A DNA stretch of 60,544 bases, the filler included, from Hausera hauseri (taxonomy: Eukaryota), in NCBI GenBank assembly GCA_046269625.1. It is 10 parts of 10 records of this genome, joined end to end, with 100 filler letters (N's around TTAATTAATTAA, not from the genome) between each part and the next. Parts side by side here need not be neighbours in the genome. Positions count along the whole stretch, not along the records: positions 12,917 to 17,980 come from JBJURY010347157.1; 9 more parts are not named here. The stretch is one strand, 5' to 3'. The translations under genes were made by a program, and so were the position numbers. The notes under the pieces are model-generated. The model was not told the origin of the DNA and made no database searches. It saw only the letters and a program-made list of their open reading frames with translations. This document shows positions 1 through 47,803 of the stretch, in pieces (the first letter of the stretch is position 1; each line of letters starts with the position of its first letter).

Positions 1-77
1 ATTCATGTGGGCTGAGTATAATTACTTCTTAAAATGAAACAAAAATGTTCTGAAGTAAACACTTCACAGAAACAATC
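1..77 (+). repeat. 77-bp exact direct repeat of the contig end (copy 1)
   Basis: 1-77 is identical to 7532-7608. Confidence 0.97.
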
Positions 78-120
78 ATACCAGTAAAATCAACAGACTG
101 TCTGCAATTTCCTTCCTTAC

Positions 121-6100: not shown

Positions 6101-7213
6101 AGATTCTGCATCTGCTAGACCTTGTGTAACTATTCCAGAGATTGAGTATGGAGCAAGAAAATCTACCTGAATATACTGGCTTTTGTCTGAAACACTGTGT
6201 AGAAAACAGAAAAAGAGAAAAGACATTATTTCTGAATAAATGTTGCTCACTTAGGAAAAAAAACTCAACAAACCCTACTTTCAAAAAGTGATTTTTTTTT
6301 TTTAAAATATACATGTATCACAAACAGCAAACACCAGACAGCAAAATGCCAATGGAGCTCAGCAATCAGTTTGAGTCTACATTAATTATTTAAAATCATT
6401 GTGAGTAAATAAAGTGACCTACGCAGGAGACCAGCCTCCAGCCATGGATCCATCTTTCTGAATGTAAATTCTGCCTCTTGAAGGATTATGATGTAAGTCA
6501 AGATAACTTGAGGCAGTCAGCTGTCTGTCACTGATAACTTGAGGATTACTTAAACCCATTGGTACATCACACCCTAAGATAAATAAAATGACTGTTTTAA
6601 GTTAGTGATCCAACAACAAATTATTTGTTGTCAACAATTCTTCAACACAATTTACAAATGTACATTTTCAAAGAATAAACTGTATGCAGATGATATGTAT
6701 CATCATCAAGGTTGAAACACCAAGCAAATCCGTACAAGCTAATAAGTCTACTTCTGGTACTGAACAAAATTCTTACTGGGAGGTATTGCAGGTGTAGCAG
6801 TATTCCCTACTCCTGGTGTAGCAGTATTCCCTGTTCCTGGTGTTGCTGTGGATTCTGAAGATGGTGTTGGAGTAACTTGAGGTGGAACATTTGGTGTACA
6901 GCCAATAACAGTAAATCTAAGACCTATACCATTCGTAGAGGCCTTAACAGGGACAATCTTCACATACTGTGCGATTATGTCCCGGCTGAAAAGAGCCCTT
7001 ACTGGTGTGCTACTGTCTGTGTTTCCAGTGAACATAAATGGTGTGTTAACATTGTCAGATTCCATATATGGAAAGAAATTCTTCCCGTCCACACTTAGAT
7101 AAACATAATATTGCTCAACCCAGCGAGGAGAATCTGGACTGCCTTGCGTCACCACTCCAGACACGAGTTTAGGCTCCCTGAAGTTTACCATTATCCAAGG
7201 CTCAGCTTCGGAT
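121..7213 (-). CDS. Multi-exon fragment of a large secreted mucin-like protein: four F5/8 type C (discoidin) domains, WxxW domains and P/T/S linkers
   Basis: Exons encode repeated YIQVDF..SGIVTQG..WV..Y.S.DG..F..F.GN.D....ARYV...P..GLRF..GC motifs (6777-7213, 5820-6192, 3055-3285+2636-2825, 1349-1643+487-630), first-half exons C..PMG....QL.ASS...GGW (121-272, 6420-6590, 3695-3840, 1938-2076) and WSSWIN/CHDYEIRYKC WxxW motifs (4647-5200, 5435-5600). GT-AG borders seen; exon limits approximate. Confidence 0.85.
741..1230 (+). mobile_element. Intronic 3' fragment of an RTE-like LINE
   Basis: MWFLRRMIKISWTDKRSNEFVL, then after an insertion ..RFENLITTGQIESQR; typical of RTE ORF2 C-termini. Confidence 0.75.
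851..1001 (-). mobile_element. Second LINE 3' tail nested antisense in the first, with 10-bp TSD
   Basis: Flanked by ATATAAGAAA at 841-850 and 1002-1011; minus strand ends in a (TAG)n tail and encodes a PKGHRG.GRP-like remnant. Confidence 0.7.
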
Positions 7214-7531
7214 CTGAAAACAGTCAAACAGAAGGGGACAAATGTTAGTGTACCTTGAGAAAGATATATGTAACAAATTCCTCATATATGGGTATGCAAT
7301 AAATTTGGAGCATAAATATTTGTAATTAATTTTAATTTCTTGATTCCTGTGATTAATATTCATGAAAGTAAAGCGGCATAACTTCACAATTTTGTAAAAT
7401 TTATTCTAGGTAGCTCAAGTATCGTTAAGTATTTGAGGGTAATGCACAATGTTGGGTTTTCTTTTACATCAGGAACAAAAGAAATGCTGATGTGGTGCAT
7501 GCCATGGTTGAGAAAACTTCAGACTCAATCT

Positions 7532-7608
7532 ATTCATGTGGGCTGAGTATAATTACTTCTTAAAATGAAACAAAAATGTTCTGAAGTAAACACTTCACAG
7601 AAACAATC
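7532..7608 (+). repeat. 77-bp exact direct repeat of the contig start (copy 2)
   Basis: Identical to 1-77; typical of a circularised assembly-graph node. Confidence 0.97.
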
Positions 7609-7708
7609 NNNNNNNNNNNNNNNNNNNNNNNNNNNNNNNNNNNNNNNNNNNNTTAATTAATTAANNNNNNNNNNNNNNNNNNNNNNNNNNNNNNNNNNNN
7701 NNNNNNNN
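7609..7708. other. Artificial contig spacer (first of nine; others start at 12817, 17981, 23061, 27936, 33211, 40101, 46116, 51028)
   Basis: 44 N + TTAATTAATTAA (stops in all six frames) + 44 N, repeated identically. Confidence 0.99.
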
Positions 7709-8955
7709 AGAGAAGAACCGCTTAGCAATTGAAGTAATATCGATTTAGAAATATTGGGTATAGACCCAGTAGATATTCCTCCCTTGATGGGAATGATTAA
7801 AATCGCATTTGCGGTACCAAAATAATATACAAACCTAGAAGACCGAATTAAAATAGAAAATGAAAGCCGAGCGCAGATTTACAGCCTGAGAAACCGAATC
7901 ATTTTCCCAATATATGAGGAGACTCAATACGTAATATATGCTTGTATCGTAGAATTGGACGAATATAAGGACGAGTTTAGTTATGTCGGTCAGATTATGA
8001 AATTTCTAAGAGGGACACACGATGAGTTAAAGGATGCATATAAGATGCTAGATAAAGCTATAATGGCAAAGCCAATGATCGCCAATCAATTGTCGAAATG
8101 GTCCGAATTAGTAATGCGGTTGAGCAAGTTAGTGGAAAACCTAAGAAAGAATCCCCAGAGAGCGAGCCTTCTGTAAAAAAGCAGTTAGAAGAAAGCGCTC
8201 GTAACTTAGAATTAATACTGGCAGAAATAGACATCCGAACGCGATTCGAAGCATCACGACGACTCAATTTTATGAAAAAGAAACAGGAAGCAACGATACT
8301 TGAAGAGATCTATGAAATGATCGAAGAGACAAATTTTACCGAAAAGCGAAATATGACTTGCAATTTTTATCCACGATTGAAAAATATCCGATTAGAAGGA
8401 GTTCAACATTTAACATATAAACCCATTGACGAGATCTCTGTCCAAGATATCGAGACACTAGATGTTTGTCCGGAACACCGAGTCACTTTAATGGACACAA
8501 TAAAATTTTTGCATAAACCTCAAGAATGGATGGCTGGATCAGATCAAAACTTCTATATCGAATTGATAAAAATAAGAAATGACCAACATATTAGTTTTCA
8601 GGAATCTAAGTTCGTAAAGAAACAATTAATGCTGAAATTACGACAAGTCGAAGAAACGTGCATAAAATCAAAACAAAGAGTAACGAGGCTAGATGACCTG
8701 GCAAAAGAACTCGAAATTTACCGAAATAAATATTCTTTCACAGAATCAGAAATCAAGAATAAGCGAGAATTCGTACAAAGATGGCAAAAAGATGTAATCA
8801 TTGAATTAACAGATTATCACCAAAAGTGACTCATTGATTCTAATGAATTCGGTGAATTACTAAAAATGATTCAGTATGCCTGTGGGAATGGAGTAGGTTT
8901 CCGGACTACGCAGATGAAAGAAATACAGCCCAGGTTGAAAGAAATTTGAGAAAAC

Positions 8956-10236
8956 ATGCAAAGAACGAGTGTAGCATTGGTAGGCACTGGACTTCCAGAT
9001 GTTGGAAACGAACCGGAATGGGACGCGTACTTCGACGCAATACTGGCCGAAAAACCCATGACCCCAGTACAAATAAACGAGATAAAAATGTGCCCACAGA
9101 ACAGGAGATTCAATGTGGAGATGCTTCTGGATTCAACGCTAGCTGAAAAAGACTTAATCGAACTAATTAACGTAAACATTGCTGAAAGTAAGGTAGGACA
9201 ACTTATTCCGACATTAACTAAATTATCTATTGAGAACACGATTTATAGCACGGTGCAGAAACTTTTGATAAGGAAATACGCTAAAATCTTGAGGACCAAA
9301 CCTGAAGTAGCGATGAAAGTACTAATATCATCCGAGTGGATGGTCGAAAAAGAATACGAATTAACTACATATTCCTATGTGAAGGACGTAAGAGAATGGT
9401 TATTAAATAATGGCGGAACCAATGAGGTAAACTATAGATTTTATTTTAGAGGCAAAATACTCGACGACCTAGAGCAATTTATAGATGTCGGAATCATTCC
9501 CGGCGAAACAAACCGAGTAGTAGTTACAATAGCTAACGAACAAACCAAGGAAGAAGCTACACGCAAAGCTAAGGCAGAACAATGCGTAGGACAAATCATG
9601 GGAGTCCGAGATGCCGCTATGTATTTTGAGTATTTGCAAATAGATGAAAATAAGGAAAAATATAATATAAATTTAGTACCACTGAGAGAAATAACAACGA
9701 AAGGGCCAAAGCTGAAACGTCCAGTAAGCCGACCTAAGAAAACGCGAGAAGAAGTTGTCTATAATGGAGAATTGATTAGAGAATTGAGACAGCTGTCGAT
9801 TCCGACTCTCAGTACAGATAATGAGAAATTAAGCGAGTTAATGAAGTATCTAGTACGAATCGTGAATTATTCAAGTCTTCGAGGTGACGTATTAGACGAT
9901 AAAGAAAAGATAATTTTTGAAGCAGCTAGAACGATGAGAAGTTCACGCTTTAAACTATCAAAAAGTAACTTAGCCGATGAATCGGTAATCGATAAGATTA
10001 TGGTAGAAAATACCAAGGAGGAACTAAGAAAAGTACTACTATATTTAGCTATCAAAGTAAACCCTAATCGAGAGAATGAAATTAATAGAGCTACAAGCTT
10101 AGCACGAAGAGCGGAAAGAAAATTGCCCCGTGAAGTAAATTGGTCAAGACTATTTGACAAGGAAGAAGATAGACGAACTAGTAATAAACTCGACGATATG
10201 TTACGTAATTTAACAATAACGAATCGGATTGGGTAA
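8956..10236 (+). CDS. Polyprotein segment with ubiquitin-like domain (~9310-9535) and degenerate Bcl-2-like helical domain (~9800-10160)
   Basis: MKVLISSEW..EYELTTYSYVKDVREWL..YRFYFRGKILDDLEQFIDVGI..VVVT fits a beta-grasp Ubl; DKIMVENTKEELRKVLLYLAIKV aligns by eye with EKMFATGITREKVVTAIAYLLYKV of copy B. Confidence 0.65.
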   Translation: MQRTSVALVGTGLPDVGNEPEWDAYFDAILAEKPMTPVQINEIKMCPQNRRFNVEMLLDSTLAEKDLIELINVNIAESKVGQLIPTLTKLSIENTIYSTVQKLLIRKYAKILRTKPEVAMKVLISSEWMVEKEYELTTYSYVKDVREWLLNNGGTNEVNYRFYFRGKILDDLEQFIDVGIIPGETNRVVVTIANEQTKEEATRKAKAEQCVGQIMGVRDAAMYFEYLQIDENKEKYNINLVPLREITTKGPKLKRPVSRPKKTREEVVYNGELIRELRQLSIPTLSTDNEKLSELMKYLVRIVNYSSLRGDVLDDKEKIIFEAARTMRSSRFKLSKSNLADESVIDKIMVENTKEELRKVLLYLAIKVNPNRENEINRATSLARRAERKLPREVNWSRLFDKEEDRRTSNKLDDMLRNLTITNRIG

Positions 10237-10250
10237 TTAGCTTACTCACC

Positions 10251-12010
10251 TTGGTGATGCTAATTAATCACATAGGCGCTGTAACTGTCTACGACTGTAA
10301 TAAGTTTAAGCTAGGACAAAAATATTCCCTGATGGATCTGGAAGTGTGCGAAGATGCCAGACCACACAAATTGGAGACAAAAGAGAAAAATTACTTCCTA
10401 TATCAGCAGCGGGAATTGATGTCGCTAGACACTCATCTATAATCAAACCAACGACTCCATTAATTCCAATGAACTTAGAACGTCAACACTGCAAGCAAGC
10501 CAAGGAAACTGGAAGAATACAATGGGACAGTATGCAATTAGAAATGCAATCAGGAAAAATAATCAGGGCATACAAAATAGTGGCCGGAAGATTGGATATG
10601 CATAGTGGACATTATAGTGGAGCAGAATACGACACCGGGAAGGGATTGGAGGCAAACGTAGTGGTTGTGGATTTCAACGAATTAGAAATTCGATCATAGA
10701 AGGTAATGTTTCATATTGTCACCAAACTGTATATAGAGAATCAAAAATGTCATTTACAAGATGGGACCTGTACTTTTAGAAGTTCGGTTATAATATGGGA
10801 ACATCCTTCTGGAAGAAATTGTAATTTTATTAAAATTAAAGAATTAAAGTTTAATGAGACTGCAAGAAAGCGATATGTGGACAAATCAGAAACAAATTCG
10901 AGGACACATGAGGATGTATCAGAACACTCTACACCTACTATATTAATTTCGGATCAGCATGAATTGAAATTTACTAAAATAGAGATGATTTCTGGCTGTG
11001 ATGTAGTGATGTTTGCTACGAACTACAAGGCGTTTTTCGTCGCAGAAACGGACATAAGTGCGAAGACGTATAAGCTCGAAACACAGGATGTCGGCATCGA
11101 AGATTACTTGAAAAATAGAGATAATTACTTTTGTTACAAGGGACAAGTCGGAATAACGGAACTATATCATAAAATGATAATGAATGACTGCAAATTGGAT
11201 ACGAAAATCATGAGAACTAAAATGGCTCTGATATATGCAAACCAATAATTGGCTTCACCAATAATTCCCATGAGAGAAGGAATTGTCGGTCTGGTAACAG
11301 GCCAAGTATTGCTAACTTATGAATGTGAAAACAGAGATGTACCCATCAACGTGGAAGAGAAACGTTGCATTCAGGAACTTCCTGTTATTTACCAAAATAT
11401 TCCGAGATTAGCTACACCGCTGACGAGAGTGTTATTGGATAACGCTATTCAACCGACCATCCTTAAAAATTGTAAGGCAAGCTTAGGAGAACCTATGTTT
11501 AGACGTATTGAGACAGACTGGGTCGGATTGCCAAATGGAGGTATTATTGCCGCTCCAAATAAATTGACAGGAACATATCTCGCGGAAGGAATTACAGACG
11601 ATCAATTTCAAGACGCCTCATAGAAAGGTATATAGGCCGAAGGAAATTGAGGCTTTTAGGCAATTCCTTGCCTTTCCACGACAACGAATACATGAGCTAA
11701 ATCGAGCTATGGCTTCTGTAGTAGATGATACGCGATACCAGGCTAAATGGGAATCTTTACTTGGCGTAAATCATTATCAGCGAGTAACAACTAAAATACT
11801 TTACAAAATGTGGAGAAGATTTTTGATATTCGGACAAGCCACATCCGGATTTTTAGCGATATACTTCCTGATTCAGATGGTTAAAGCAGTAGTCCAAGCA
11901 GTAATAAATGGATATGAGATATTTACATTGACTGGATTTTCATGTAAAATATTGACTGCAATCATAACGCCTTTTGGAAAATTCTTGAAAGCATACGAAG
12001 AAAATAGATG
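10251..12010 (+). pseudogene. env: Envelope glycoprotein (chuvirus-G/gB-like class III fusogen), frameshifted
   Basis: AVTVYDCNK...YSLMDLEVC start, Cys-rich ectodomain, C-terminal FLIFGQATSGFLAIYFLIQMV TM; several stops and frameshifts. Confidence 0.75.
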
Positions 12011-12674
12011 GAAATCGGACGTAGAACGCCATGTCGGCTATTATAATGGTAAACGAAGAGGAAGGCCTATATTTCTACGGAAACGAAAATTTCCAAAACC
12101 TATTACACGAAGAAATAATTCAGATAATGACGAGCCTAAGGGAGGAGAAACACTTTCAGGAATAAATAGACATAAGATGTACTCTGTCGTTAAAGCGCCA
12201 TTATCCATGTTACCTCCTACCGCTCCATTCTACAAAGATTGTGACAAACGATCCATGAGTTCATATCAGACGGAAATTTATAAAAGAACAATTAATGTAG
12301 AAGATCCTTATGAGGGAACAAAACGTTATGGAATTTTACGGAAAATGTGCTACCGACAATCCACAGATGATCCCAGACTATTGTACTTACCGAGGGAACC
12401 TAAGAATATCGAAATTAGATCGACGGTTTGGGACAATTCAAGGCTAAAAACCTTCCAGAATACTGAATTACACACTAACAATCGCAAACCATTAATTAGT
12501 ACGCATGAAGCGGAAGAATTGCACATAGAAAAGAACGGGCTATATCCAAACGAAGAATTGAAACAGTTGTCGGAGAATATAGTAACCTCTCTCGAAATTC
12601 GAATCAATGGACATAAAATATCGGCGACAAAACGTCCAAAAGTAGCAACAAATTGTTTCGGGACATTGATAGAA

Positions 12675-12816
12675 GGAAGACCCTTCGCTAAAATTATTAT
12701 AGAAGATTTTGGAGGTTTATACATTAATTGATATGGGTTCCGAGATATCTTACATCAAAAATGATTCAATACCTCAAACGCTGAGAGGACAATTATACCC
12801 ACCGTCTACGAAGGAC
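12675..12816 (+). pseudogene. Start of retroviral-type aspartic protease directly downstream of the env tail
   Basis: RPFAKIIIED/(frameshift)EVYTLIDMGSEISYI; DMG at 12730-12738 sits at the D-T-G position. Confidence 0.75.
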
Positions 12817-12916: not shown

Positions 12917-13121
12917 AATTAAAATTAATCCTAGCCCCACAGGCTATCGCTGCCCTAACATATTACGTATAAGTTAGTGATAGGTAAGACCAACATCTCT
13001 GCAGTATTCAACCCTAGAAGTAACAAAATCTCACCACATACGTAACCTTGTTCACTCCACTAATTTGAATAACGCTTTATTGAGAAGTCTCTCCCAACCC
13101 AAATTAGTGAAGGATTGAACA
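12917..13121 (+). repeat. 3' part of the 5' LTR of copy B
   Basis: Ends ...GAACA, 2 nt before the PBS; truncated by the contig start. Confidence 0.7.
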
Positions 13122-13123
13122 AC

Positions 13124-13141
13124 TGGTGCCGTGACCCGGGA
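13124..13141 (+). promoter_or_regulatory. Primer-binding site complementary to the tRNA-His 3' end
   Basis: TGGTGCCGTGACCCGGGA versus the known His-type PBS TGGTGCCGTGACTCGGAT; located between the LTR end and gag. Confidence 0.85.
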
Positions 13142-13296
13142 CCACTCGATACCCAAACGCACGCATTTGATATTTTTAAAAGTTTACCTTTGAAAGAAGC
13201 AAAATTAGTACTACTAGAAAAGGCACTAAATATCAAGAAGATACCGAACCACATTACGGTCTAGAGTATTTGGATAATCTGTCAGAAGAAAACGAA

Positions 13297-16200
13297 ATGG
13301 CCCATACAAATGTTGTAGAGCAATACGTGCAATCAAAGGCGGACTATACGCTACCCATGAAAAAGTTTAGTGGAAAAGAAGATGTACAGGATTTTATGAT
13401 GGAGTACGAAGTGTACTCAAGAAGTTTTGGATGGAATGACCAACAACGGATGGAAAGATTACCTCTTCATTTAAAGGGAACAGCCCTAACAATTTATTTC
13501 CAGATGCCAGAAGATGATAAGAAGGACTGGAAGTCCATTAAGGATAAGTTGCCGCAGAAGTTTCTAGTTGATCCCTCTGGAAAGGGGAGGATAGAAGAAT
13601 TTATACGAAGAAGGCAACGTAAGGATGAGTCAGTCCAAGATTATGTGTGTGCATTGGAAAAATTGGCAGCACGGGCATATCCTGACGTAACGATAAGAAG
13701 TAACGCTTTGTTGGCCCAATTCCAGTATGGATTGGAAGGAAAGTTAAGGACAATAATATTACAAGCTGACCCACCCACGTTCCAAGAGGCGATAAGGAAA
13801 GCTCGTAAAGCCGAACGGGATATGGAACTATATAGGTGGAACAAGTCCAAAAGTTATGAAGATAAACAAGATAAAAGGAAGAATAATAGCACGCAAAAAT
13901 ATCAACGATACGATAGGAATCGAAGCCCATCTCAAACCTCAGCAACAGAAGCAGAATCAGATATAGAAAAGAAGGTCAGATTTAAGCTGAAGAACGATGG
14001 AGAAAAGTCAAATTATAAAAGGAAGTCCTCTATGAAGGATGGAAGAGCATTGCCTAATATAGATTCGGAAGGAAGGTTGAAGTGCTTTAATTGCAATAAG
14101 TATGGCCACATAGCAAAATCATGCAGGTCACGAAAAAGAGATTCTTCAAAGCCCGATAACAGTAAACAGAAAAAGAAGAAGGATTACACATCAGCTACCT
14201 CGGATGAGTCATCTGATAAAGAATACGAAACAGAAGATAGCGAGCACGAAAAGAAAGATAAAAAGAAAGAAAGTGTAAATTATGTTAACGAAATATTGTC
14301 CCAACGAATGAAAAAGCAGTTAGCCATAGAATTAAACGACTATAAAATTCAACAAAAACGATTACGAGAAAATAGTATTTGCGTAACGGAAGAAAAGCCT
14401 AAAGGAGGAAAACCTCGTCCAGAAAGAAAGAAAGGTAACAAAAAGATAATAGAAGTAGAATCCCGCGAAACATCTGAAGAAAGAAGTAACGTAGGACAAA
14501 AAGGGAAAGGACGAAAGAAAAGTAAACCCGGTGAACCAACACCGGAGGAAAGTGAGGAAGAAACGCAACCAGCAAAGATTTTTGATGAAACTGTTATCGA
14601 ACAAGTAATACATGACATAGACGTAGACCTAGATGCCGAAGATGATCTCATTCAAGCAGTCATTGCCATAGATCCTGAGAACATACTTGATGTAAATCAA
14701 GCCACAAGTACGATATTGAAGTTAATAGATAATAAGGTATCTTCAGTTAAGATAAAGGAAATTTTATTTCAACTATTATTACTGGCCCACGATATTAGTC
14801 CAATTAGAGAGATAGCTCGGACAATACTGGCTAAAGCAGCTGAAGATGAAAAAGGAAGAAACGAAACAGTAAGGATAACGTTAAAAGAAGGGAATCAGGA
14901 TATCAGAGTTATTAGAATGAATGAAGCAGATGATATATTATCGTTGCGAGAAAGAATCGAAGACTTAGAACCATTTTACAAGGAAAAAGTATATGGGTTA
15001 AGTTTTTATGGAAGAACGTTATATGGTTATGATAAGTTATTACGAATAGGATGTAGAAGTGAAAATTACAACCCAATTATGATAACGGAAATACACCCTG
15101 ACGCAAGGGCAGAAGAAACGATAGAAAATATAATGAGGGAAATGCAACCACCTGAGACAGAGGAACAACCAATTGGTGATACACAGGATGTCACAGTACA
15201 AACTGAGGCTAGAAGAAGAGGGCGACCGAAAGGAACAAAGATAAGCGATATTCGAAATAAAAGAGATAGGAATGAAGAGATTGTAAGACGTCTGCTATTA
15301 GCAGGTACAGATACGACACCGGAAGCTATAGATATAGATCCTTTGTTAAGAACGTTGCTAGCGAAGTTACACACGTCATTTGCATCGTTTGATATGCAAG
15401 TAACAATTCCGGACGAACTATTCCAAACGTTGCGTAATGGAATGCTAAGAATCAGTAGACAATTTTATGAGAATATCAATGAAGAGAGAATTAACGAATT
15501 ACACGAACAAGACATATTGGAAAAGATGTTCGCGACAGGCATTACCAGAGAAAAAGTTGTAACAGCTATTGCCTATCTCTTGTATAAAGTAATCGTTATC
15601 AATTACCAAACACAAAATTTAGAGGAAATCGAAAGAAATATAAAAGTGACGGTTAAAATTTTACGTGATACGTTAGAAAGTTGGGTACAGTGTAGAGGGG
15701 GATGGATACCAAGTCTAATGAACGGTAGAATAAGACCCGAAGGAGGTTCGCATCAAAGAGCAGACACCATACAATTAAATACTATGAAACAAGGCTTAGG
15801 CGGTATGTCATTCATGGAGATATTACAATTATTATTGATAGCATCCATATGTATGCCAAAGGCCATGGGCGTGGTGGCCTATGATTGCTCGAAACCCAAA
15901 GAAGGGCAGAAATACTCATTGGTTGATCTTGAGAAGTGCCCAGAAGCCGATCCAGAACAATTAACAACAACTAGTGGTCATAGATATTGGGTATATCAAG
16001 AATCGGAGTTTATAAAAGTTAAAATTCGAGAATGTTACGTAAAGAGATCGTTCTTTCTATTTAATTGTGCATACTATTCTGGGAACTCCGCAATTATCGA
16101 ACCAACGACACCTTTTGAACCAATAATAATATCACGGGCGGAATGTCAGGATGCTTTTAAAATCGGAGTCATAACAATCCAGAACGCACAAATACCAGCA

Positions 16201-17337
16201 GTACGAAATAAGATAAAGTATACCCGAATTTTTAGAGCTGGAAGAATAGATAAAACAATGGAAGGAACCTGTAAAGGAGTGGAATACGACGTTGGAGGTA
16301 CCATCGCACCCCGAACAGTAGCCATTGAAGATTATCAGGTCCAGCTGAAGGAATATGAAGGATTGTTCGATTCTCAAACAAAACTCATGACAATTATGAA
16401 CGAATGCGAATACGAAAACGGAGAATGTGATACGGGAGAATCCAAAATGACATGGGAAGTATCATCGAATCGGTGTCACCTTACTTTATTGAAAGAAGGA
16501 AAGTTTAACAAGACAATAGGAAAGACGGCTGAAAAAGAATCAACAACATATAAGGAAGGAATTAAAGAAGTAAGGATGACAGAAGTAGCAACAGTAGTAT
16601 ACTCGGAAAATCCGGAAGAAATGATGCGATTTAAAATTGTTGGAACAATCAATAAGTGTAATGAAGAAATGTCCAAAACTAATTATAAAGGTATATACCT
16701 TTCAACTAAAGAAGTAACTCAAGCTAAAACAAAAATAGATAAAAAGGATATAAAATTAACGCAATATTTTGACAATAAAGTTGACTTTTTAATTAACTAC
16801 GTCAGGAAGGAAATTAGAAGTTTATACAGGGAAATAATACTGAACGAATGTAAACTAAATTATGAAATTATCCGAAATAAAATGGCGTTGGTCATAACGA
16901 ACCCCGACATGGTAGCCCCAGTAATGCCGTTTGGTGATGGGATGATCGGAAGAGTTATGGGCGAAGTATTGATAACTATTGAGTCTAAGAAGGTGGAAGT
17001 AGCAATTAGGCCAACAGAAGAATGTACATCAGAATTACAAGTGATTTATAATATGGAACCTCGATACGTAATGCCGGTGACAAGAATACTGCTAGACGTT
17101 AATGCGAAGCCCACTCAGTTAAATAATTGCACTTTTAATATGTCACCAATGTTTAAACTAGACGAAGATAAATGGATAAGAATGCCGGAAAGAGAGCCAG
17201 TACCGAAACCAGAAACATTGAGTTTAATTAATCTGCAGAGAAACCAGAAATTCGAACCTCTTATTGGCATATCACAAGGAGGAATTTATACACAACAGAA
17301 TTTAAAGGATTATTGGCGAATGTTACTGTTTCCCTAG
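13297..17337 (+). CDS. Gag - Ubl - Bcl-2-like - Env polyprotein (copy B) in one uninterrupted frame; the frame continues past in-frame TAGs to the contig end
   Basis: Gag capsid (KKFSGKEDVQDF..LPLHLKGTA..RRQRKDESVQDY..FQYGL), CCHC knuckle CFNCNKYGHIAKSC at 14083-14124, Ubl ~14866-15099, BH1/BH2-like motifs 15526-15705, signal peptide 15805-15870, VVAYDC at 15871. Confidence 0.9.
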   Translation: MAHTNVVEQYVQSKADYTLPMKKFSGKEDVQDFMMEYEVYSRSFGWNDQQRMERLPLHLKGTALTIYFQMPEDDKKDWKSIKDKLPQKFLVDPSGKGRIEEFIRRRQRKDESVQDYVCALEKLAARAYPDVTIRSNALLAQFQYGLEGKLRTIILQADPPTFQEAIRKARKAERDMELYRWNKSKSYEDKQDKRKNNSTQKYQRYDRNRSPSQTSATEAESDIEKKVRFKLKNDGEKSNYKRKSSMKDGRALPNIDSEGRLKCFNCNKYGHIAKSCRSRKRDSSKPDNSKQKKKKDYTSATSDESSDKEYETEDSEHEKKDKKKESVNYVNEILSQRMKKQLAIELNDYKIQQKRLRENSICVTEEKPKGGKPRPERKKGNKKIIEVESRETSEERSNVGQKGKGRKKSKPGEPTPEESEEETQPAKIFDETVIEQVIHDIDVDLDAEDDLIQAVIAIDPENILDVNQATSTILKLIDNKVSSVKIKEILFQLLLLAHDISPIREIARTILAKAAEDEKGRNETVRITLKEGNQDIRVIRMNEADDILSLRERIEDLEPFYKEKVYGLSFYGRTLYGYDKLLRIGCRSENYNPIMITEIHPDARAEETIENIMREMQPPETEEQPIGDTQDVTVQTEARRRGRPKGTKISDIRNKRDRNEEIVRRLLLAGTDTTPEAIDIDPLLRTLLAKLHTSFASFDMQVTIPDELFQTLRNGMLRISRQFYENINEERINELHEQDILEKMFATGITREKVVTAIAYLLYKVIVINYQTQNLEEIERNIKVTVKILRDTLESWVQCRGGWIPSLMNGRIRPEGGSHQRADTIQLNTMKQGLGGMSFMEILQLLLIASICMPKAMGVVAYDCSKPKEGQKYSLVDLEKCPEADPEQLTTTSGHRYWVYQESEFIKVKIRECYVKRSFFLFNCAYYSGNSAIIEPTTPFEPIIISRAECQDAFKIGVITIQNAQIPAVRNKIKYTRIFRAGRIDKTMEGTCKGVEYDVGGTIAPRTVAIEDYQVQLKEYEGLFDSQTKLMTIMNECEYENGECDTGESKMTWEVSSNRCHLTLLKEGKFNKTIGKTAEKESTTYKEGIKEVRMTEVATVVYSENPEEMMRFKIVGTINKCNEEMSKTNYKGIYLSTKEVTQAKTKIDKKDIKLTQYFDNKVDFLINYVRKEIRSLYREIILNECKLNYEIIRNKMALVITNPDMVAPVMPFGDGMIGRVMGEVLITIESKKVEVAIRPTEECTSELQVIYNMEPRYVMPVTRILLDVNAKPTQLNNCTFNMSPMFKLDEDKWIRMPEREPVPKPETLSLINLQRNQKFEPLIGISQGGIYTQQNLKDYWRMLLFP

Positions 17338-17715
17338 CAGAGACAACGAGTAATAGCAGAATTAACAAGAAGAGTGATGTGGGACGGAGAAGGTTCACCA
17401 CAATGGGAAAACATAATGGACAGAGATTATTTGAAGAAAGTCACAAGAAGTGTTATGGAAAAGATGTGCGGAAAATTCCTCTATTTTGGCCAGGCTGCTT
17501 CAGGATTTTTAGCAATATATTTCATCATCAGTGCCCTACGGACAATATTCACTGCACTTGGTAAAGCTTACAGAATACATGCAGCAGTAGGATGCTCTTG
17601 GAAAATCCTCATAGCGGTAATACCGACAGTTGCTAGTTGTTTTCCAGCAAACCATGACGCCAAATGGAAGAGAAAAATTCTTAAAGGAAGAAATAACGAT
17701 ATCGAAAAGAATTAG
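17338..17715 (+). CDS. env: In-frame continuation of Env: membrane-proximal region and TM
   Basis: After the TAG at 17335-17337 it reads QRQRVIAELTRRVMWD...KFLYFGQAASGFLAIYFIISAL, homologous to the TMs of copies A and C. Confidence 0.85.
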   Translation, partial: QRQRVIAELTRRVMWDGEGSPQWENIMDRDYLKKVTRSVMEKMCGKFLYFGQAASGFLAIYFIISALRTIFTALGKAYRIHAAVGCSWKILIAVIPTVASCFPANHDAKWKRKILKGRNNDIEKN

Positions 17716-18872
17716 CCATATAGTACCCTAAATGATAGAAATAATGACGACGAGAACGATCCAAATGTCCAAGGGAGACGTGAGAGATATTTAACAAGAC
17801 TCAGAAAATTTTCCTTAAGGTCCCAAAGACAGAAGTAGAAACGAAAATTGATTACTGATTTACCTCACTTAGATCCAGCAGACGAATACCACGGACAAAC
17901 ATATAACGAACAAATGCTAAGTCCTTCGGCTCCCCAATATGTGAAACACGGAGGCATGTATCCCACATACCAAATATTACNNNNNNNNNNNNNNNNNNNN
18001 NNNNNNNNNNNNNNNNNNNNNNNNTTAATTAATTAANNNNNNNNNNNNNNNNNNNNNNNNNNNNNNNNNNNNNNNNNNNNAACTAGTGCCCATTGAAAGC
18101 TTCATATACCCATAGAAAATACCGAAACTAGGAAAAGATCAATATACGAGTAATATTGAAGTAGAACAGTTCTGTGAAACTTTTTGAATTCAACGTCAAA
18201 ACCGCCCATAACGTAATTTCCACCGACAAAATGCCAAAGCTTAACATTTGACATAAACACTCTAAAACTGCTACAAACCAAATGGACTGAAATAAAAAGT
18301 TGTCTAAGTGAATAATTTATGGTTTAGAAAACTATTCGGTGATGAATACTCTGTTAAGTGAATTACCGCGTCTAAATCGTCTAGTTAAGAATATCAAAAA
18401 AAAAAGAAAAATCAGTCGACAAAAACAATTTAATGAATGAAATATGCGATTGACAAATATCAACTAACCAGGAAATCCGAACGGAGAGAGCAAATCGAAC
18501 ATATGACCAACGAACGGATAATAAAAGTCAGACCATACACGAAAAAAGAAGTAAATAGCACATATGAGTAATTTGAGGTGACTATTCAGACAAAACAGAC
18601 ACACATACACGCACACGCGCACACACACGCAGAGACAATGTTAATTATTGTATTGTATTTGCCAACAGTTATTCTCGCAACATCCCATTGATAAAAAATA
18701 ATCGGTTTCGGTATTGGATATCACTCCAACTAGCCAGCCAGATCCTTTGGATGTTTATCGACATAAGCCGTCAAAACATGCCTTCTCTCCATCAAAAACT
18801 CCCCCAAAAAATTTTTTTTCGGTGACTTTTTAAGTGATGCATGCGAGATTAATCGGTGGCTAGTGCAATGAA

Positions 18873-22866: not shown

Positions 22867-23229
22867 GTTGCATAAAATTACCAACGAGAAATAACAAGGA
22901 AACTAGTTTTAAATGTGTAATAAAACAGGTTTAATAAAACAATTTTTCTACAGTAATTTAAAGATAAAAGTTCAACATAAATTATATAGTTTATTAAATG
23001 TTGTTAAGGGTAAACTCTAGAACACAGTTCTGTTGATAATTTCGATAAATGTAATTTAAGNNNNNNNNNNNNNNNNNNNNNNNNNNNNNNNNNNNNNNNN
23101 NNNNTTAATTAATTAANNNNNNNNNNNNNNNNNNNNNNNNNNNNNNNNNNNNNNNNNNNNAATTAAAAACACAGTCGAAAATTAATAACTAAAAGGGCCC
23201 GTGATATTGTGCGAGCGAAACCCTTTAAT

Positions 23230-23840
23230 ATTGGTGACTATCAAATGACCTTTTGTCATATGATGCTAAACAAAGTTTTCACATCTATAAGGGAACATTA
23301 AAAAATTAAAGGAATTCCAGGATTATTAAACATCCCTGCGGTTTTATCCGCAAATTAATTGACGAAGACTTAGCAAGTTCTTTCTTTGACATTTCATGTC
23401 TCTTTTCCAGTGATAAACCGAATTATCTGAATGGTGTAAATGCATGGGAACCGTATTACACTTACCTCTCCCTTAGAGAACTCTTAGACCGCATTCGGTA
23501 AAATTGAGTAAAGACGGTCTGGTTGAATATTCTTCAGTTTCGACTGCCAGCAAATTGACAACAAATTCCTTCCGTCTGCCAGCACTATAACCGAAAAAGC
23601 TATATAAAAATAAGGAAAACCTCGAAATAAAATTCAGAATAATGGATAAAAATAATTCAGGGCATATACCACTGGCAGAATTTCGGGATGCTTACAAAAT
23701 TCTTCATCGACACATCGGCAATTAAGCGACGATACAATAAACGATTTAGCCAGTTGAATTGATATAAATAAAGATGGAACGATAGATTTCAATGAATTTT
23801 AGAAATATTTAGATTGTAGTGAACTGACAAACAAAACCTG
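23230..23840 (+). pseudogene. EF-hand C-terminal remnant resembling PPEF/rdgC phosphatase
   Basis: LYKNKENLEIKFRIMDKNNSGHIPLAEFRDAY ... LDINKDGTIDFNEF, with stops and frameshifts. Confidence 0.55.
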
Positions 23841-25088
23841 AATTGCACTTTCGACTTTTAAGATATACTTATTCATGTGTCTTTATTATGTGCAATAAAA
23901 TTGAACAATGGCCATAGTTGAAAAAAAACGTTGAAAAAAACAAAAATAGGAATCAGTGCATTTATATTTAAATTTTGAATTTTGAATCAAAAACTAAATG
24001 TCTATACAGATTGTTGCTGCATATATTGGGCAAGCTGAGATACAGTTAGGTAGTGCCCTTTTGGAGCTATTTTGTGTTGCACATGGAGTAACGTGAGAGG
24101 GGAAATTGGCAGAACAAAGAGATGAAATTTTAAAACTGGCTAAGATGGAAATTAAGTCTGAATTAATCAGATTGCCTTTGCGAAAACTGTCAGAAACGTA
24201 TGGGAAAAATTTCGGGTGTGTGCAGAAATATTTCTATTGCCGACGATGTCCCAGAGTACTATGGATCAGTACAATTCTATTTTAGACACTTACTCTGCAA
24301 TGGAATATGTTTATTACGGAATTCTGTTCGTCAACGAGTCTTCATCAAAAAGGAGTTAATCATTTGGGTTGTGTAAGACTAATGTACATTCTGATGAATC
24401 GTCTTCTAAATCAAATGGTTTTGTGCATCTTTCTCTCCCATCAGTATCGATATAATGAGACGTATCACATTGTTGTTGACAAAATCTTGATCAAGGTCGT
24501 ACCATATCCATGAGTTTATTTTTCTGTCCTCAGTTAGGTTCCCATTGCCAGTCAGAATCAAATTAGATATGGGCGATTAGATGTTACCGATTTAACACGT
24601 AATGTAATTTTGGGTGACGGACCTTTTCTGAACTTCTCATTCGAACACAACAAATCCACGTCCTGTTGTTTGTTATATTGCTGCTACTTCGGCCCGAGAG
24701 TGGTTTATAATGCTGTGATAAAAGATATTGTTAATTATAAAAGTTGTTTGCGTTACTCGTTCGTTCATTTTTTTGGTGTCAGCGGGCGTCGTGATGTGTG
24801 TGCACTTGAATGTATGTTTGCTAAAATCAGTTTGAGTGCGTAGGAGAAATTATTAAGGGTGGACAGTGTTTTTCGGAGAAAGATTCCCCGTTAAGAGGAG
24901 CTAGAGGTGGTTATGAGATTGATATTCATTTTATTTCGTGGTAATTTACAATAAAATTGTTAGCTATGAAAGGAGAAAAAATATTCGAAAGAGGAGTAAT
25001 ATATCGGGTGTGTTTTCATCTTGTATCAAATTTACGAACTCAACAAAATCGTTCGGTGCGTATATTATAAATTCTCCAGCTCTTAAGG

Positions 25089-27935: not shown

Positions 27936-28382
27936 NNNNNNNNNNNNNNNNNNNNNNNNNNNNNNNNNNNNNNNNNNNNTTAATTAATTAANNNNNNNNN
28001 NNNNNNNNNNNNNNNNNNNNNNNNNNNNNNNNNNNCGGGTTTTGTTTAATAGGATTATATGATGTTGAATAACATTGGTTCTACCGATGTCATTGTCATT
28101 CATAGCTATAATATCTCGATATTTGTGAAATAATTGCAATAGTTTTTTCAATTGATATGGGGTTAAATCGCCGTCTTTAAATTTGATATTTTTATCTTCT
28201 ACTTAGAATGTTGCTAAGCATACTTTAACCGGTTGTAACTGTACTAAATTGAGGTTTTGCAGTAATCTGTTTGCCTTTTTATTAACGCTTTCTATTGGCA
28301 GTTCTAAAAATTGTACCCATTTTGGTATAAACAAAGGATATTGTAGAATCTTATATTTTTCATTATTATACAAATTCGGTTC

Positions 28383-28830
28383 TTACATACAAAGTTGCTT
28401 GTGGTATTGCGGCGGTATTGTTAACATTACTACTACCTGCTGTTGTGATCTGATAATTACGTCATGAGTCAAAGTCATGCTGATTTCCTCAATTGGCAAA
28501 TTAATCATCGTGTATTTGAGGGTTTTGGTTGATAGGTCCATTGGGAGACTTGAAATTTGAGATAATAAATACATTCCTATTACCAAGGATACTTGCAATA
28601 TTTTGTCGTCCACCAAAAACAGAATGATGGTATGTAGATTTTCATCAATTCTTATTTTGATGTTTATTTTTCCTGAAAATTGTACTTGTGTAGAATTGGC
28701 CGCTGCTATTACCATATCACTCGGCATAAATGTTTCTTTTTGATCGTCAATCAAGCATGAATGTCGAATCATTGACATGCATGCACCGGTATCTAGTAAT
28801 GCCATAATATTTAATCCGTTAAATTGTACT
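28383..28830 (-). CDS. Ty3/Gypsy-type aspartic protease
   Basis: VQFNGLNIMALLDTGACMSMI...IAAANST.V..SG.....LVIGMYLL. Confidence 0.9.
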
Positions 28831-29279
28831 CAAATGTAGCGGTTATTTCCTGTTGTTATAGTGGTTTGAGTCATAAAAATGAATTTTGTATTATTTCGTC
28901 GAGTATCCGCGGTATTATATTGTCGGAGTACATTTTGTGGATAAGCAGTGCTTGGTAAGCAGGTATATTTATCCAAATCTCTTGCCATTGGAAGATCATG
29001 CATGGACGTGACCTTCATTTCTCTGTAATCAGGATATTCCGGGAATTCATCAATAGGTTCGGGTTTATAGTATGTTGGTACTTCTGGCTCGAAGTGTTGT
29101 CTAGCTTTCTTTCTCACTAATTTATATTTAACCAGACATTCTTCCGTTGTTAACTTAATAAAACTTGTAACTGTTGTTCTAGTTCTGGGGCTAGACGAAG
29201 TTCTTTTTTTAATTTGTCAAGTTCCTTTCATGCCAGTACATTAATCCTGATTGAGCCATTAAGGGAAAACATACAAGCA

Positions 29280-31110
29280 TAATTTGCCATGTACAACCAC
29301 GTACTTTCTTTATATTTCTGGCGACTCCTGTTTGTCTTAATATAGCCATTATAGTGGTAATTATAACATAAATACCAAAAACTCCAGATATTACCTGACC
29401 AAAAATAAGGAATTTATTCCAGACGTCATAAAGGACTTTTATGCTGTTCTCTCTAAATGGTCAATTGGCAATAACATTTTATAATTAGGTACACCATCTG
29501 ATCCTTTTGTAACAGTATATACGAATTCTGTGATAACTTTTCTCGAATATTCTAAAATAATTCCTGTTTTCTTACTGCCTCCAAATCCGTTAATGAATAC
29601 AATCCACTGGTGGGGAGTTCTCTATTTACTTTAAACTTTATACCTTTATCCTGTTGTAACAATCCAATCGTCTGCGGTATATTCATCGTAGTTGGAAGCG
29701 TGTGTTAGTACACCTTCCGTCATTAGGTTTAAAAGCTGGATAGAAATTCTTGTAACATGGTGCAAAACTAATTTCTGTAGGTAATAACAATTTTCGAGTA
29801 ATAGGATCTACATATCCGATTTTAAGTATGTTTTTCTCTTTATATTGAACCATTAATTCATTTGTGCAATTTTCTCTTGTGCTCGTTATTGGGGTTATCT
29901 GTATTGGAGGGCACTGATATACATGGCGTATTTCACCTTGTACCCTACCAAATGTTTCAGGGCGATATTCCCTAATTAAGACAATATGTTCTGGGAATTC
30001 TCTGGCTAGTATTAAATCATTCTGGTTCAATTTTTGAGTAATTTTACAGTCTCTTAGTACCACCATGTTATATAACTCAACTAAATCCATTTTTGCCGTG
30101 TAATAAATATAATCTATCTTGTTGTTCGTGTATAGGTACTACTTTATATCTTCAATTGGTAGCTTTCCTGTATTTGCTAGAATTACGTTTATTAAAAATA
30201 GATCTTCATAAGATGTAGAATAAACGGCATTCGATCCACAAGTCTATACTGCTCCTTTGCGTGCCAATACGATTCCATCTTTGTCGCTGGATGATATTAA
30301 GACTTTTAAAGAAGTGGTCTGTTTTAAGGTTCGTGGGGTAGGTAAACTTATACTATGGTTGTGTACAGGTTCTTGATATTTGTTATCATAATATAAATTA
30401 TTTTAGATTTTATACATAGATACTTGTTTAAGGAAAGCTAGTGGACATATTACGACCGTTTTTTCCCAAACTAGGGTAGATTCTCCTAATGTACACACTT
30501 CATCAGAATATGTATAAGATGGTGCGGTTAATATTTTTCCTGCAATTGCATTGAAGTTTACTTTATATTCCTTTATGGTGACAGTAAAATCTTCTATTTG
30601 TACCACAGCGGATTCTTTTTGTCCACTTATCATCATACTTTGTCCTTTACAAACTCCACCATATCCTGGCCATATTTTTATGGCTGGAACTATACGTGAA
30701 TAAACTCGTTTTCCTATGCCTGCCTGTACTAGCTGTTGTAAGCCTACGTGAATTGAGTCTGTGGAATTTATACAATTTTCATCAGTTATTGTTACGGGCG
30801 TAGGTAGTCCTGGTGCAATAATTACTGAATTCCACGAATTATGACCGCAATTATAAGCAAATAACTTTATTAATTTGACATTCCTTTACTTGCACTCGTT
30901 GATTGCTGATTCTTTGATACAAGTTATAAATGTAAAGACCTTCCTTCTTTACTGATATTAGATTTGCGTTTTGATATTTACCTATATCTACCAGTGAAAG
31001 TCTGGCTATTATTTCTGGTTTGGAGCAATCGTAAGCTTCTAATGCCTTCGTAGTTTTTAGGCTACTAACGGCTATTAAATATAATAACAGATGAATAATT
31101 TGTACTTCCC
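29280..31110 (-). pseudogene. env: Envelope glycoprotein (chuvirus-G/gB-like), fragmented
   Basis: Hydrophobic leader then AYDC (31026-31037); fragments 30403-30636 and 29683-30090 align with copy B (IEDF.V.IKEY, GES.L.WE, GRVQGE, CTNEL.V.Y, YVDPITR); conserved TM. Confidence 0.8.
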
Positions 31111-32745
31111 AATCTGAGACATTGGTATCTTTGGGGTGTATTAATGTAGTGGTGTTAAATTTCTTGAGGATTTCGTCCCAACCACTTTGTTTGGTTACTC
31201 ATTCTTTCGTTAACTTACCCATATGATGGGCTAAATTCCTCACTATATTGTGTAACTTGACATCAACCTCTGTTTGGTTTTTAAAGCTTACCACTATGCA
31301 TCCTAATGTCATCAGTAGTGGTTTAGATAACATTCCTTTAATAATGGTGTCAATGCTTTATTCAATCCACCTTTCAATTTATATTTATGTAATATTCTCG
31401 TAATTTGTGATGAGAAGTTTCTAGCAGTTTCTATTATGGACTGTAATGGAATTGTTGTTATTGTTGGTATCTTCTTGAGTTGATATGGATAAGCTTTCTT
31501 AATTAATTGTTCTAAGAGTTCATTAGTTGTCAATGTTACCTTTGGTACATCTATTTTGTTTTCATCCAAATTTCCCGGAGTAGGATTTTTTATTAATTCA
31601 TTTTCATCATCACTAATAGTAAATCGCTGGATGTTATCACATAATATATCTTCTAACATTTCCCGTTGCTCCTTACGTTTTCGCGACAAAGGTCTTTTCT
31701 TTCTTTGCCTTTCTGGCTTTTCTTATTCGGAATTTTCTTAATCATCACTTATTGGATTAAAATCGCATTTTTGTGGCCTCTCTCCTTTTTCTTGGTGCCA
31801 AATTCCATGGCAATCTGATGAATTTTTCCAGTAAGGAGTCCATAATCTACAACATAATCGTTGTCAATGGCCAATCTGCTATAAACATCAGTTTTCGCTG
31901 TTATATTACTTTCTAGATCTAATTCCTCTCGCACCTTCCTTCGGAGATCTTTAAATTTGGTTAACATTCCTGCTGTTACTTTAATTACTTGTTTCCGCTT
32001 ATTAAACCTAATTTCTATACTTATAATGCATGGTTGTTTTCTTCTGTGTTTTCGTCTCAGATCTCTTCAAAGAGCTTTTAGTAACTTTCGTGCGGCTGAA
32101 AAGCAGAAAACGTCATCTTTTGTTAGCGGCAGGAGTAAAGGCGCACATTCTATTCGACTAGTTAATGGTAGTGACTCATATTGTCGTAAAGCATTTCATA
32201 CTTCATTAGGTGCTGAAACAGTCATATGTAATTTAGCTTTAATTATTTCAGTTACTGATTCTGGAGGTTTGTCGTGCACTATAGAACCTGGTGGAATATT
32301 CATTTATGGAAAGATTTTTGGGTTTTCCATTGGCAATAGTGTAGTTTCAGGATATTGGATCACGTCCGATGTAAGTATAAGTTCATTGTCTTCTAGGATT
32401 TCGAACATTTCGTCTCCATCGACTACTCGTGGTTCCTTTTTGGAGGTACTTGGGTGTATTGAATCCCAAATACTTTTTAATAGCGTGGGCCGTTGGGGTG
32501 GAATCTTTAATTGGGGAAGTGGTGCGACTAATCTATCGTTATAAGGTTCTATCCATTCTCCAGTTGATCTTGTTCTGACGAGCTCATGTGATTATTCATC
32601 ATAATCCATATCCGTATGTCTGAGCAATTGGTTCGATTACTGGAATTGTTGTTGCTTCTTCAATTTTCTCAAGTTTTCGTATTGCTGGAAAGGCTATTCG
32701 TAATGTTTTCTGGCTTTCTATTATTCATGGTATATTGTATTCTAC

Positions 32746-33195
32746 TCATACTGTCCTTAAGTATTTGTCTAGACATCTTTGTGCCATAATTTCTGAGTTA
32801 TGACCATGATACAGGTCTAAACATTTGTAGGTTCTGTTATTCTTTTCCAGGTCGTAGATGGCGGTTAGATTTGCTGGATTTATTCTCAATGCATTTAATA
32901 ATTCTGGAAACTGGCGAGCGATAATTACTTTTCCTGGTAAATATTTATTCACAAATTCGTTTACTGACTCTTTTCGTTGAGGATTGGATCTTCTACTATA
33001 TTCGGTGTACTCTATAATATCTGGTATGTTCGGATACACATCAATATTGAGAATTGTTTTTCCTTCCAAATTTTTGGCAGTAACTTGTGTAAGTCCTTTC
33101 TGGTCTCCTTTGATTATGCATCCACCTGTAAAAATTATTTCTGTGTCCTGTCTTACAAGTTCATCCGCGATAAATATGGGTATTTTTTTAAGCAA
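32746..33195 (-). CDS. Degenerate REX4/ISG20-like DEDDh exonuclease domain
   Basis: LTQVTAKNLEGKTILNIDVYP, VNEFVNKYLPGKVIIA...LNALRI and HGHNSEIMAQRCLDKY follow the REX4 pattern, but the acidic catalytic residues appear replaced. Confidence 0.5.
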   Translation of the reverse strand: MLKKIPIFIADELVRQDTEIIFTGGCIIKGDQKGLTQVTAKNLEGKTILNIDVYPNIPDIIEYTEYSRRSNPQRKESVNEFVNKYLPGKVIIARQFPELLNALRINPANLTAIYDLEKNNRTYKCLDLYHGHNSEIMAQRCLDKYLRTV

Positions 33196-33442
33196 TTGTA
33201 TTAAGTATATNNNNNNNNNNNNNNNNNNNNNNNNNNNNNNNNNNNNNNNNNNNNTTAATTAATTAANNNNNNNNNNNNNNNNNNNNNNNNNNNNNNNNNN
33301 NNNNNNNNNNTATGTCCGTCTTCTTGAATTTGGTACACTTTTCCTCCATCGTAATATATTTCAGGCGGGAATCCATACAAAACCTGTAAAAGTTGTTGAA
33401 AAGAATAACCAAAGGAGATCACACAACTTTGAAGGTGGAGTA

Positions 33443-47764: not shown

Positions 47765-47803
47765 TATCCACTCAACGATTCCTTGTTGGTCTAAATCAGG
47801 TAT

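Follow-up and report, generated by a model that had tools for sequence, protein, structure and literature searches.

The genome of Hausera hauseri (GenBank assembly GCA_046269625.1) raises the question of what kind of element carries the chuvirus-type fusion glycoprotein (G) that recurs, in diverged form, in the 60,544-nucleotide stretch of DNA analyzed here (the window). The window consists of 10 unlinked contigs joined by nine artificial spacers of 44 N's, 12 bases and 44 N's (e.g., 7609-7708), so that neighborhood across the spacers is meaningless. Each of the three G regions sits on a contig of its own, about 5 kb long (copies 1, 2 and 3; Table 1), and copy 2, on JBJURY010347157.1, is the focus of this work. 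On balance, we read the three regions as decayed members of three families of flatworm-type Ty3/gypsy elements with the gene order GAG-ENV-POL, and the open frame of copy 2 as containing, in addition, a Bcl-2-fold domain.

Is the same glycoprotein indeed present three times? The original prediction of a chuvirus-G/gB-like glycoprotein conserved in three diverged copies is borne out by matches that lie far above those of shuffled sequences. Firstly, in a Pfam scan, PF24664 (Monjiviricetes_fusion) matched all three regions: the open reading frame (ORF) of copy 2 at 13180-17337 (E 5e-61, 206.9 bits, with a cut-off of 27) and the piece at 17338-17712 (E 2e-14), three of the four scanned pieces of the copy 1 region 10310-12728, and three pieces of the copy 3 region 29686-31198. 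Secondly, a tblastn search of the window with copy 2 retrieved copy 1 (E 1e-81, 203 bits) and copy 3 (E 6e-45, 151 bits), whereas the best score obtained with 100 shuffled copy 2 queries was 27.7 bits. In the main segments, copy 2 is 31% identical in protein sequence to copy 1 and 25% to copy 3, copies 1 and 3 share 24%, and blastn between the copies found no DNA match; they therefore represent three distinct families and not duplicates. A tandem triplication was rejected because the regions lie on separate contigs and lack DNA similarity. All three copies are broken and none is able to make a membrane-anchored G: copy 2 has a premature stop ahead of its transmembrane (TM) segment, and copies 1 and 3 contain several stops and frameshifts each. 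The three regions are old families that decayed separately. The limits predicted for copy 2, with the mature protein starting at 15871 and the TM segment at 17476-17560, agree with ours. The list of 12 shared motifs held in part: YDC, C..EL.V.Y, P.TR.L and FLxFGQ..SG occur as written in all three copies, but most of the others are present in two copies or in a relaxed form.

To which class of fusion proteins does this G belong? The unbroken ectodomain of copy 2 (15871-17334) was modeled with AlphaFold2 from 130 sequences, giving a mean predicted local distance difference test (pLDDT) value of 93.5. In a Foldseek search of the PDB with this model, herpesvirus gB accounted for all 34 matches listed (best E 1.6e-14). 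In VIA-align the top five were gB chains (Z 8.7-11.0), followed by class III proteins of thogotoviruses, rhabdoviruses and baculoviruses, and the best non-viral chain reached Z 4.0. The closest structures among predicted viral proteins, at TM-scores of up to 0.81, were those of chu-like glycoproteins and their relatives. The best structural matches are thus viral fusogens and not host proteins of another kind. The model has gB-like features, namely an extended fusion domain, a pleckstrin homology (PH) domain and a long central helix. Copy 2 matches 34 of the 38 columns that are conserved at 80% or more among 137 aligned sequences, with a substitution at one 99%-conserved position (codon 16984), and hydropathy indicates a signal peptide and a C-terminal TM segment, the latter after the premature stop. 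Together, PF24664, the top rank of gB in both structure searches and the chu-like G proteins as best viral models support a class III, chuvirus-G/gB-like fold for the predicted copy 2 protein.

What, then, does G belong to? In copy 2, a Ty3-type capsid and a zinc knuckle lie upstream of env, and the same capsid-G fusion occurs in the independent protein P0001 (38% identical over 1203 columns). The 12-base primer-binding site occurs once in the window, both strands considered. The contig of copy 2 ends ahead of the protease, and in the window Pol follows env in copy 3, where the protease and the start of the reverse transcriptase (RT) are preserved. An aspartic protease follows G in frame in 11 of the 20 relatives scanned, five of which also have RT, and the full order of protease (PR), RT, RNase H and integrase (IN) after G is found in P0004, P0007, P0014 and P0017; in the last of these, capsid, knuckle, G, PR, RT, RNase H and IN are contained in 2146 residues. 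Intact relatives thus encode the order Gag-G-PR-RT-RNaseH-IN without a break in the frame. Several relatives (P0003, P0004, P0005, P0006, P0012 and P0013) have more than one aspartic-protease match after G. Because capsid and G share a frame, and protease and RT follow G, the association with Gypsy is stronger than had been claimed. As to gene content, the original prediction was right in placing G on a Gypsy element, but it overlooked that env lies between gag and pol, that a single polyprotein is encoded, and that this polyprotein has a Bcl-2-fold and a probable ubiquitin-like domain. Two points weigh against our reading of the element: the capsid is shown for copy 2 only, and no contig contains a whole element. 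For copies 1 and 3, capsid and knuckle lie outside the contigs or escaped recognition. The idea that free chuvirus G genes integrated beside Gypsy debris, or that the host domesticated a fusogen, would fit the chu-like G proteins among the best viral structural matches and the statement, in the available part of PMC10084718, that chuvirus-G fossils often adjoin fragmentary long terminal repeat (LTR) elements. However, copy 2 and P0001 have G in frame with the capsid, many relatives have it in frame with Pol, a primer-binding site is present, and all three copies are broken; this idea is largely refuted and we regard it as very improbable.

The relationships of G point in the same direction as our reading of a Gag-G-Pol element. 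A search of 1.84 billion representatives gave 790 matches, the best of which were long polyproteins. In a quick tree with Shimodaira-Hasegawa-like approximate likelihood ratio test (SH-aLRT) support, comprising 57 rows and omitting matches shorter than 330 residues and about two thirds of the hits below rank 26, the three window sequences fall in a clade of 19 rows (SH-aLRT 99) together with Gag-G-Pol polyproteins, separate from most stand-alone G proteins and from the BEL/Pao-type protein P0127; since the tree is unrooted, it gives no direction of transfer. A BEL/Pao origin was rejected, because no BEL-type Gag or Pol with G after the integrase was found and P0127 lies outside the window clade.

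Does the polyprotein of copy 2 carry more than Gag and G? Several lines of evidence, individually moderate yet concordant, point to a Bcl-2-fold domain. First, PF00452 matches 15241-15720 at E 7e-7 with 30.1 bits, against a curated cut-off of 31.4, and P0002 alone matches it at E 0.001. Second, sequence searches of the PDB retrieved BOK, BAX and BAK with the copy 2 domain, and Bcl-xL (E 0.003) with a profile of five sequences, for which the best 60 of 109 rows were all Bcl-2 family members or Bcl-xL fusions. Third, the six Atlas clusters listed are Bcl-2, E1B-19K and pox Bcl-2-like, except for one unnamed and one pox B6 cluster. Fourth, with a model built from five sequences (mean pLDDT 49, about 70-80 in the domain core), Bcl-2 proteins made up all 41 Foldseek matches listed (E 0.002-0.007) and the top 13 VIA rows (Z 7.1-8.3, root-mean-square deviation 2.6-3.9), as well as 25 of the 26 VIA rows listed that cover the region. 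The domain is shared: it is found in P0001, P0002, P0003 and P0015, i.e., in four of the 14 top relatives with at least 125 residues before G, a profile not trained on copy 3 matches that copy at E 2e-14 and 3e-12, and in leave-one-out tests none of 500 shuffles reached the score of the real sequence for five of the six members. An earlier word-index search gave P0001 as its sole match; another, for which the Bcl-2 region served as query, had 734 candidates and no match among them, but it also missed the known carrier P0001, and its null is therefore uninformative. Between copy 2 and P0001, identity is 47% in the domain, 16% in the linker that follows, 59% in the capsid and 53% in G, and judged from these sequences the domain is apparently kept under constraint inside the Gag-Env polyprotein. 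The GGW of Bcl-2 homology (BH) region 2 is invariant in all five aligned members and degenerate in copy 1. The canonical NWGR of BH1 is found in none of the members, although the region aligns to BH1 of BOK and Bcl-xL, and on account of this altered signature we speak of a Bcl-2-fold domain and not of a canonical Bcl-2 family member.

A number of observations weigh against this assignment. Each signal is moderate, the Pfam score being just under its cut-off and no Foldseek E value falling below 0.001; the VIA Z values stay within 7.1-8.3, in a range where chance alone can give helical bundles values of up to 13; recognition in the Atlas is low and the model is shallow; BH1 is noncanonical in every member; and the domain is missing in 10 of the 14 relatives with a long upstream sequence, implying that it is dispensable. 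If a variable spacer between Gag and Env had by chance formed a helical bundle with this likeness, the uniformly moderate scores, the Z values in the generic range and the low-depth model would be as expected. This would leave unexplained that searches using sequence only independently place the Bcl-2 family on top, that P0002 by itself matches PF00452, and that nearly all VIA rows listed over the region belong to that family, and we consider a chance likeness improbable.

Upstream of the Bcl-2-fold domain lies a region that is probably ubiquitin-like, to judge from its sequence. Profile A1 matches the ubiquitin-like domains of ubiquilins (best E 0.04); alignment A1 misplaced some rows. PF00240 matches P0001 (E 0.03) and copy 1 (E 0.08), and leave-one-out tests found the region homologous in six of seven members. 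Its model has a strand-strand-helix-strand order with a pLDDT under 50, an Atlas search with the region gave no match, and no conserved C-terminal GG was seen among the members. A reading of the GRPK motif as an AT-hook was not significant (E 8.4). Further unassigned domains occupy the Gag-Env interval at 32100-33210 (-), 7709-8950 (+) and upstream of G in P0014, and this interval seems to be a cargo slot. When the domains upstream of G in copy 3 and in P0014 were read by eye as a DEDD exonuclease, neither Pfam nor the PDB gave support.

How might such a polyprotein work? Taking retroviruses and class III fusogens as models, we think it likely that intact elements make a single polyprotein threaded through the endoplasmic reticulum (ER), that Gag and Pol are held on the G membrane and released by the protease, and that particles bud with the help of the endosomal sorting complexes required for transport (ESCRT) and enter cells through G. 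The polyprotein would enter the ER at the internal signal, a hydrophobic segment ahead of YDC that is also present in relatives, with Gag, the ubiquitin-like domain and the Bcl-2 fold staying in the cytosol. Signal peptidase would cut ahead of YDC and free the N-terminus of G in the lumen, and the TM segment would bring the tail and Pol back to the cytosol, so that both Gag and Pol would be tethered to the G-bearing membrane. The element's protease would then free Gag and Pol, as in retroviruses, PSAP and YPxL in the envelope tail would recruit ESCRT for budding, again as in retroviruses, and trimeric G would fuse with the next cell, as class III fusogens do. The single-frame layout thus suggests a way for Gag, Env and Pol to meet on one membrane. 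The window's own copies are no longer able to perform this cycle.

PSAP/PTAP and YPxL are ESCRT late-domain motifs. Among the tails of the clade, P[TS]AP is present in three of 13 (copies 1 and 2 included) versus 0.08 expected from shuffles, and YPxL in five of 13 versus 0.72; this count excludes two clade members without a matched TM segment and two with very short tails. In the last 90 residues of the stand-alone G relatives among P0026-P0150, P[TS]AP was seen in 17 of 92 (0.4 expected) and YPxL in 27 of 92 (2.0 expected). Enrichment across chuvirus-type G in general may mean that G itself drives budding. Several facts argue against the proposed cycle or its budding step: the second hydrophobic stretch after the TM segment would, if it crosses the membrane, leave Pol on the luminal side; G could have a start of its own at the ATG at 15784; kinship among the sequences inflates the motif counts; YPxL doubles as a YxxL sorting signal; and one of the 13 tails, that of P0014, was cut too long.

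What could the Bcl-2-fold domain contribute to this cycle? In Bcl-2 proteins a tail anchor sits after BH2, and the G signal, about 30 residues past BH2, occupies the corresponding position. The cleaved signal peptide might thus remain as the tail anchor of the domain, which would keep it on the ER face after cleavage. That it does so, and that the domain acts as a viral Bcl-2 that blocks death of the producer cell, is an idea we advance tentatively, as one that could almost equally be wrong or right but leans towards the former. With BH1 altered and the distribution patchy, a role as signaling antagonist or adaptor comes close to it in likelihood. Poxviral Bcl-2-like proteins are antagonists of innate signaling or autophagy, and the domain of the same element may have such a job, or that of a matrix-like adaptor coupling Gag to the G membrane. 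Taken as a full alternative, this is rather unlikely in our view. It would agree with the altered BH1 of all members, with the pox Bcl-2-like clusters among the Atlas matches, and with the position of the domain between Gag and the signal anchor, next to a ubiquitin-like domain. On the other hand, the BH2 GGW is invariant, the sequence matches are the apoptotic members BOK, BAX and Bcl-xL, the top fold matches are anti-apoptotic viral Bcl-2 proteins, and some viral Bcl-2 proteins inhibit apoptosis without recognizable BH motifs (PMC11209288, available part). The complete anti-death scenario is that of a true viral-Bcl-2 equivalent within a flavivirus-like capsid-signal-glycoprotein polyprotein, anchored by the envelope signal and with budding motifs in the envelope tail instead of in Gag, by which infectious elements would keep flatworm cells alive while spreading; we hold this combination to be possible but doubtful. 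Anti-cell-death accessory genes suit infectious viruses and not purely intracellular transposons, and the Bcl-2-fold domain therefore bears on whether these elements spread between cells.

How do these elements compare with known systems? In the available part of their paper, Chary and Hayashi (PMC13524379) describe Ty3/gypsy elements from across the animals whose envelopes are gB-type and Chuviridae-like, with a GAG-ENV-POL order in nematodes, bryozoans and flatworms, and argue for an ancient envelope association; the enveloped Gypsy of the original prediction is thus an already published kind of element. The window elements resemble the HSV/gB-type (herpes simplex virus) errantiviruses of Platyhelminthes, group C1a (Schmidtea errantivirus 1-6; PMC13524379), which are Ty3/gypsy elements with a Chuviridae-G-related gB-type envelope placed before pol. 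By eye, the six Schmidtea C1a envelopes share the domain I-II motifs of the window sequences, whereas the bryozoan and nematode sets shown there do not. This comparison concerns envelope domain I-II only; the Bcl-2 domain seen here goes unmentioned in the accessible text of PMC13524379, which does not contain Bcl, ubiquitin or polyprotein, and its seven supplements contain neither Bcl-2 nor ubiquitin ("bcl" occurs once, in an assembly name). The Anakin BEL/Pao elements (Dezordi et al., as far as the available text goes) carry a chuvirus G of the same family, PF24664, but have a BEL/Pao Pol with G after the integrase, and the BEL/Pao-type example P0127 (DUF5641, then G) lies outside the window clade. 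In Schmidtea mediterranea, copy numbers of 45 and 215 have been reported for related elements, and because they are multi-copy there, the question of an anti-death role is open to testing. The non-canonical endogenous retroviruses (ERVs) of nematodes reportedly have a continuous gag-env-pro-pol frame, and we know of no Bcl-2 domain in them. Their envelope domain I-II sequences look unlike those of the window, and their host is different. What they have in common with the window elements is the flipped env/pol order in a metavirus (Sacco et al. 2022, doi 10.1099/jgv.0.001739, as cited in the part of PMC13524379 available).

The Bcl-2-fold domain is like viral Bcl-2 proteins (canarypox CNP058, African swine fever virus A179L, Kaposi's sarcoma-associated herpesvirus Bcl-2 and adenovirus E1B-19K) and like BOK, BAX and Bcl-xL in its predicted helical fold, its BH2 and a C-terminal hydrophobic segment. 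Unlike these, it lies inside a retroelement polyprotein, has a glycoprotein signal peptide as its proposed anchor, and has an altered BH1. To our knowledge, viral Bcl-2 equivalents have so far come only from double-stranded DNA (dsDNA) viruses. A review covers viral Bcl-2 in dsDNA viruses and, in its available part, does not mention retrotransposons (PMC11209288). In the literature searched, judged from listings and with few subscription papers covered, we found no description of a Bcl-2 domain in a retrotransposon, nor, judged likewise from listings, a paper on flatworm GAG-ENV-POL elements describing a Bcl-2-fold domain. The cargo domain and the polyprotein design thus appear to be undescribed, on a known type of enveloped Gypsy.

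Table 1. Coordinates of the three glycoprotein regions and their features in the window.
Region	Feature	Position	Strand	Remarks
Copy 1	Contig	7709-12816	+	
Copy 1	Element remains	8950..12816	+	
Copy 1	Ubiquitin-like domain	about 9290-9520	+	PF00240
Copy 1	Degenerate Bcl-2-like segment	about 9800-10200	+	Marginal: score reached in 15 of 500 shuffles
Copy 1	G, preceded by signal	10281-12030	+	
Copy 1	Tail with PTAP	12216	+	
Copy 1	Protease-like motif	near 12685	+	By eye; no Pfam match
Copy 1	Frameshifts	near 10230, 10428, 11600, 12700	+	
Copy 1	Stops	10697, 11246	+	
Copy 2	Contig	12917-17980	+	Focus of this work
Copy 2	Probable 3' part of 5' LTR	12917..13121	+	Inferred from position just ahead of the primer-binding site; contig begins inside; second LTR beyond contig
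Copy 2	tRNA-His primer-binding site	13124..13135	+	12-base exact complement of His_GUG 3' end (PMC13524379 supplement 1, available part)
Copy 2	Single ORF from Gag into the G ectodomain	13297..17337	+	First ATG 13297; stop-to-stop 13180-17337, 1385 codons
Copy 2	Ty3/gypsy capsid	13348..13827	+	PF19259 E 5.6e-5, under curated cut-off; 59% identical to P0001
Copy 2	CCHC zinc knuckle (nucleocapsid)	14080..14127	+	PF00098 above cut-off
Copy 2	Small helical segment	14647..14859	+	
Copy 2	Probable ubiquitin-like domain	14866..15090	+	Weak to moderate support
Copy 2	Bcl-2-fold domain	15241..15720	+	BH2-like W-x4-GGW, altered BH1; PF00452, PDB sequence, Atlas and fold searches
Copy 2	Hydrophobic segment, internal signal peptide of G	15814..15870	+	Hydropathy peak 1.94
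Copy 2	Class III fusion glycoprotein ectodomain	15871..17475	+	Premature stop 17335-17337
Copy 2	Transmembrane helix	17476..17560	+	Hydropathy; after premature stop
Copy 2	Second, shorter hydrophobic stretch	17587-17643	+	Hydropathy
Copy 2	Cytoplasmic tail	17641..17980	+	Same frame; stops 17713, 17836; PSAP 17923, YPx3I 17959
Copy 3	Contig	28036-33210	-	
Copy 3	Element remains	28036..33210	-	Many stops and frameshifts; segments share 49-75% identity with P0015, an intact relative
Copy 3	Ubiquitin-like region	about 32100-31794	-	
Copy 3	Bcl-2-like domain	31560-31130	-	Split by a frameshift
Copy 3	G, preceded by signal	31037-29236	-	
Copy 3	Protease	28829-28386	-	PF13975 E 2.5e-5
Copy 3	Start of RT	past protease	-	Pol start matches P0004, E 5e-14

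As for the host, an intron-containing UPF1 gene lies on its own contig (18081-23060, -). In a quick SH-aLRT tree with 41 named references its place is among spiralians (98) and, with a support of 89 that is not starred and on a long branch, beside Macrostomum; from this sequence the host is probably a free-living flatworm, provided that the UPF1 contig comes from the same organism. A link between this contig and the elements found no support, the host gene being on a contig of its own.

The remaining contigs gave some minor observations. Two other degraded Gypsy pol regions, at 40201-46115 (+) and 51128-57000 (-), lack G and are related to each other (71% DNA identity over 160 bases). At 23161-27935 (+), degraded frames look, by eye, like the protein-primed DNA polymerase that Polinton-like elements encode; a Pfam scan of a single ORF there gave no match. 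A degraded, A-rich, multi-ORF contig (46216-51027, -) has a RING finger at 47429-47803 and no further Pfam match; its long frames, one of which starts like a signal peptide, are unassigned, and it is possibly a viral or mobile-element remnant. Finally, contig 1-7608 has coding sequence for F5/8 type C and mucin WxxW domains, and its two ends share an identical stretch of 77 bases, probably because a tandem unit was assembled with an overlap.

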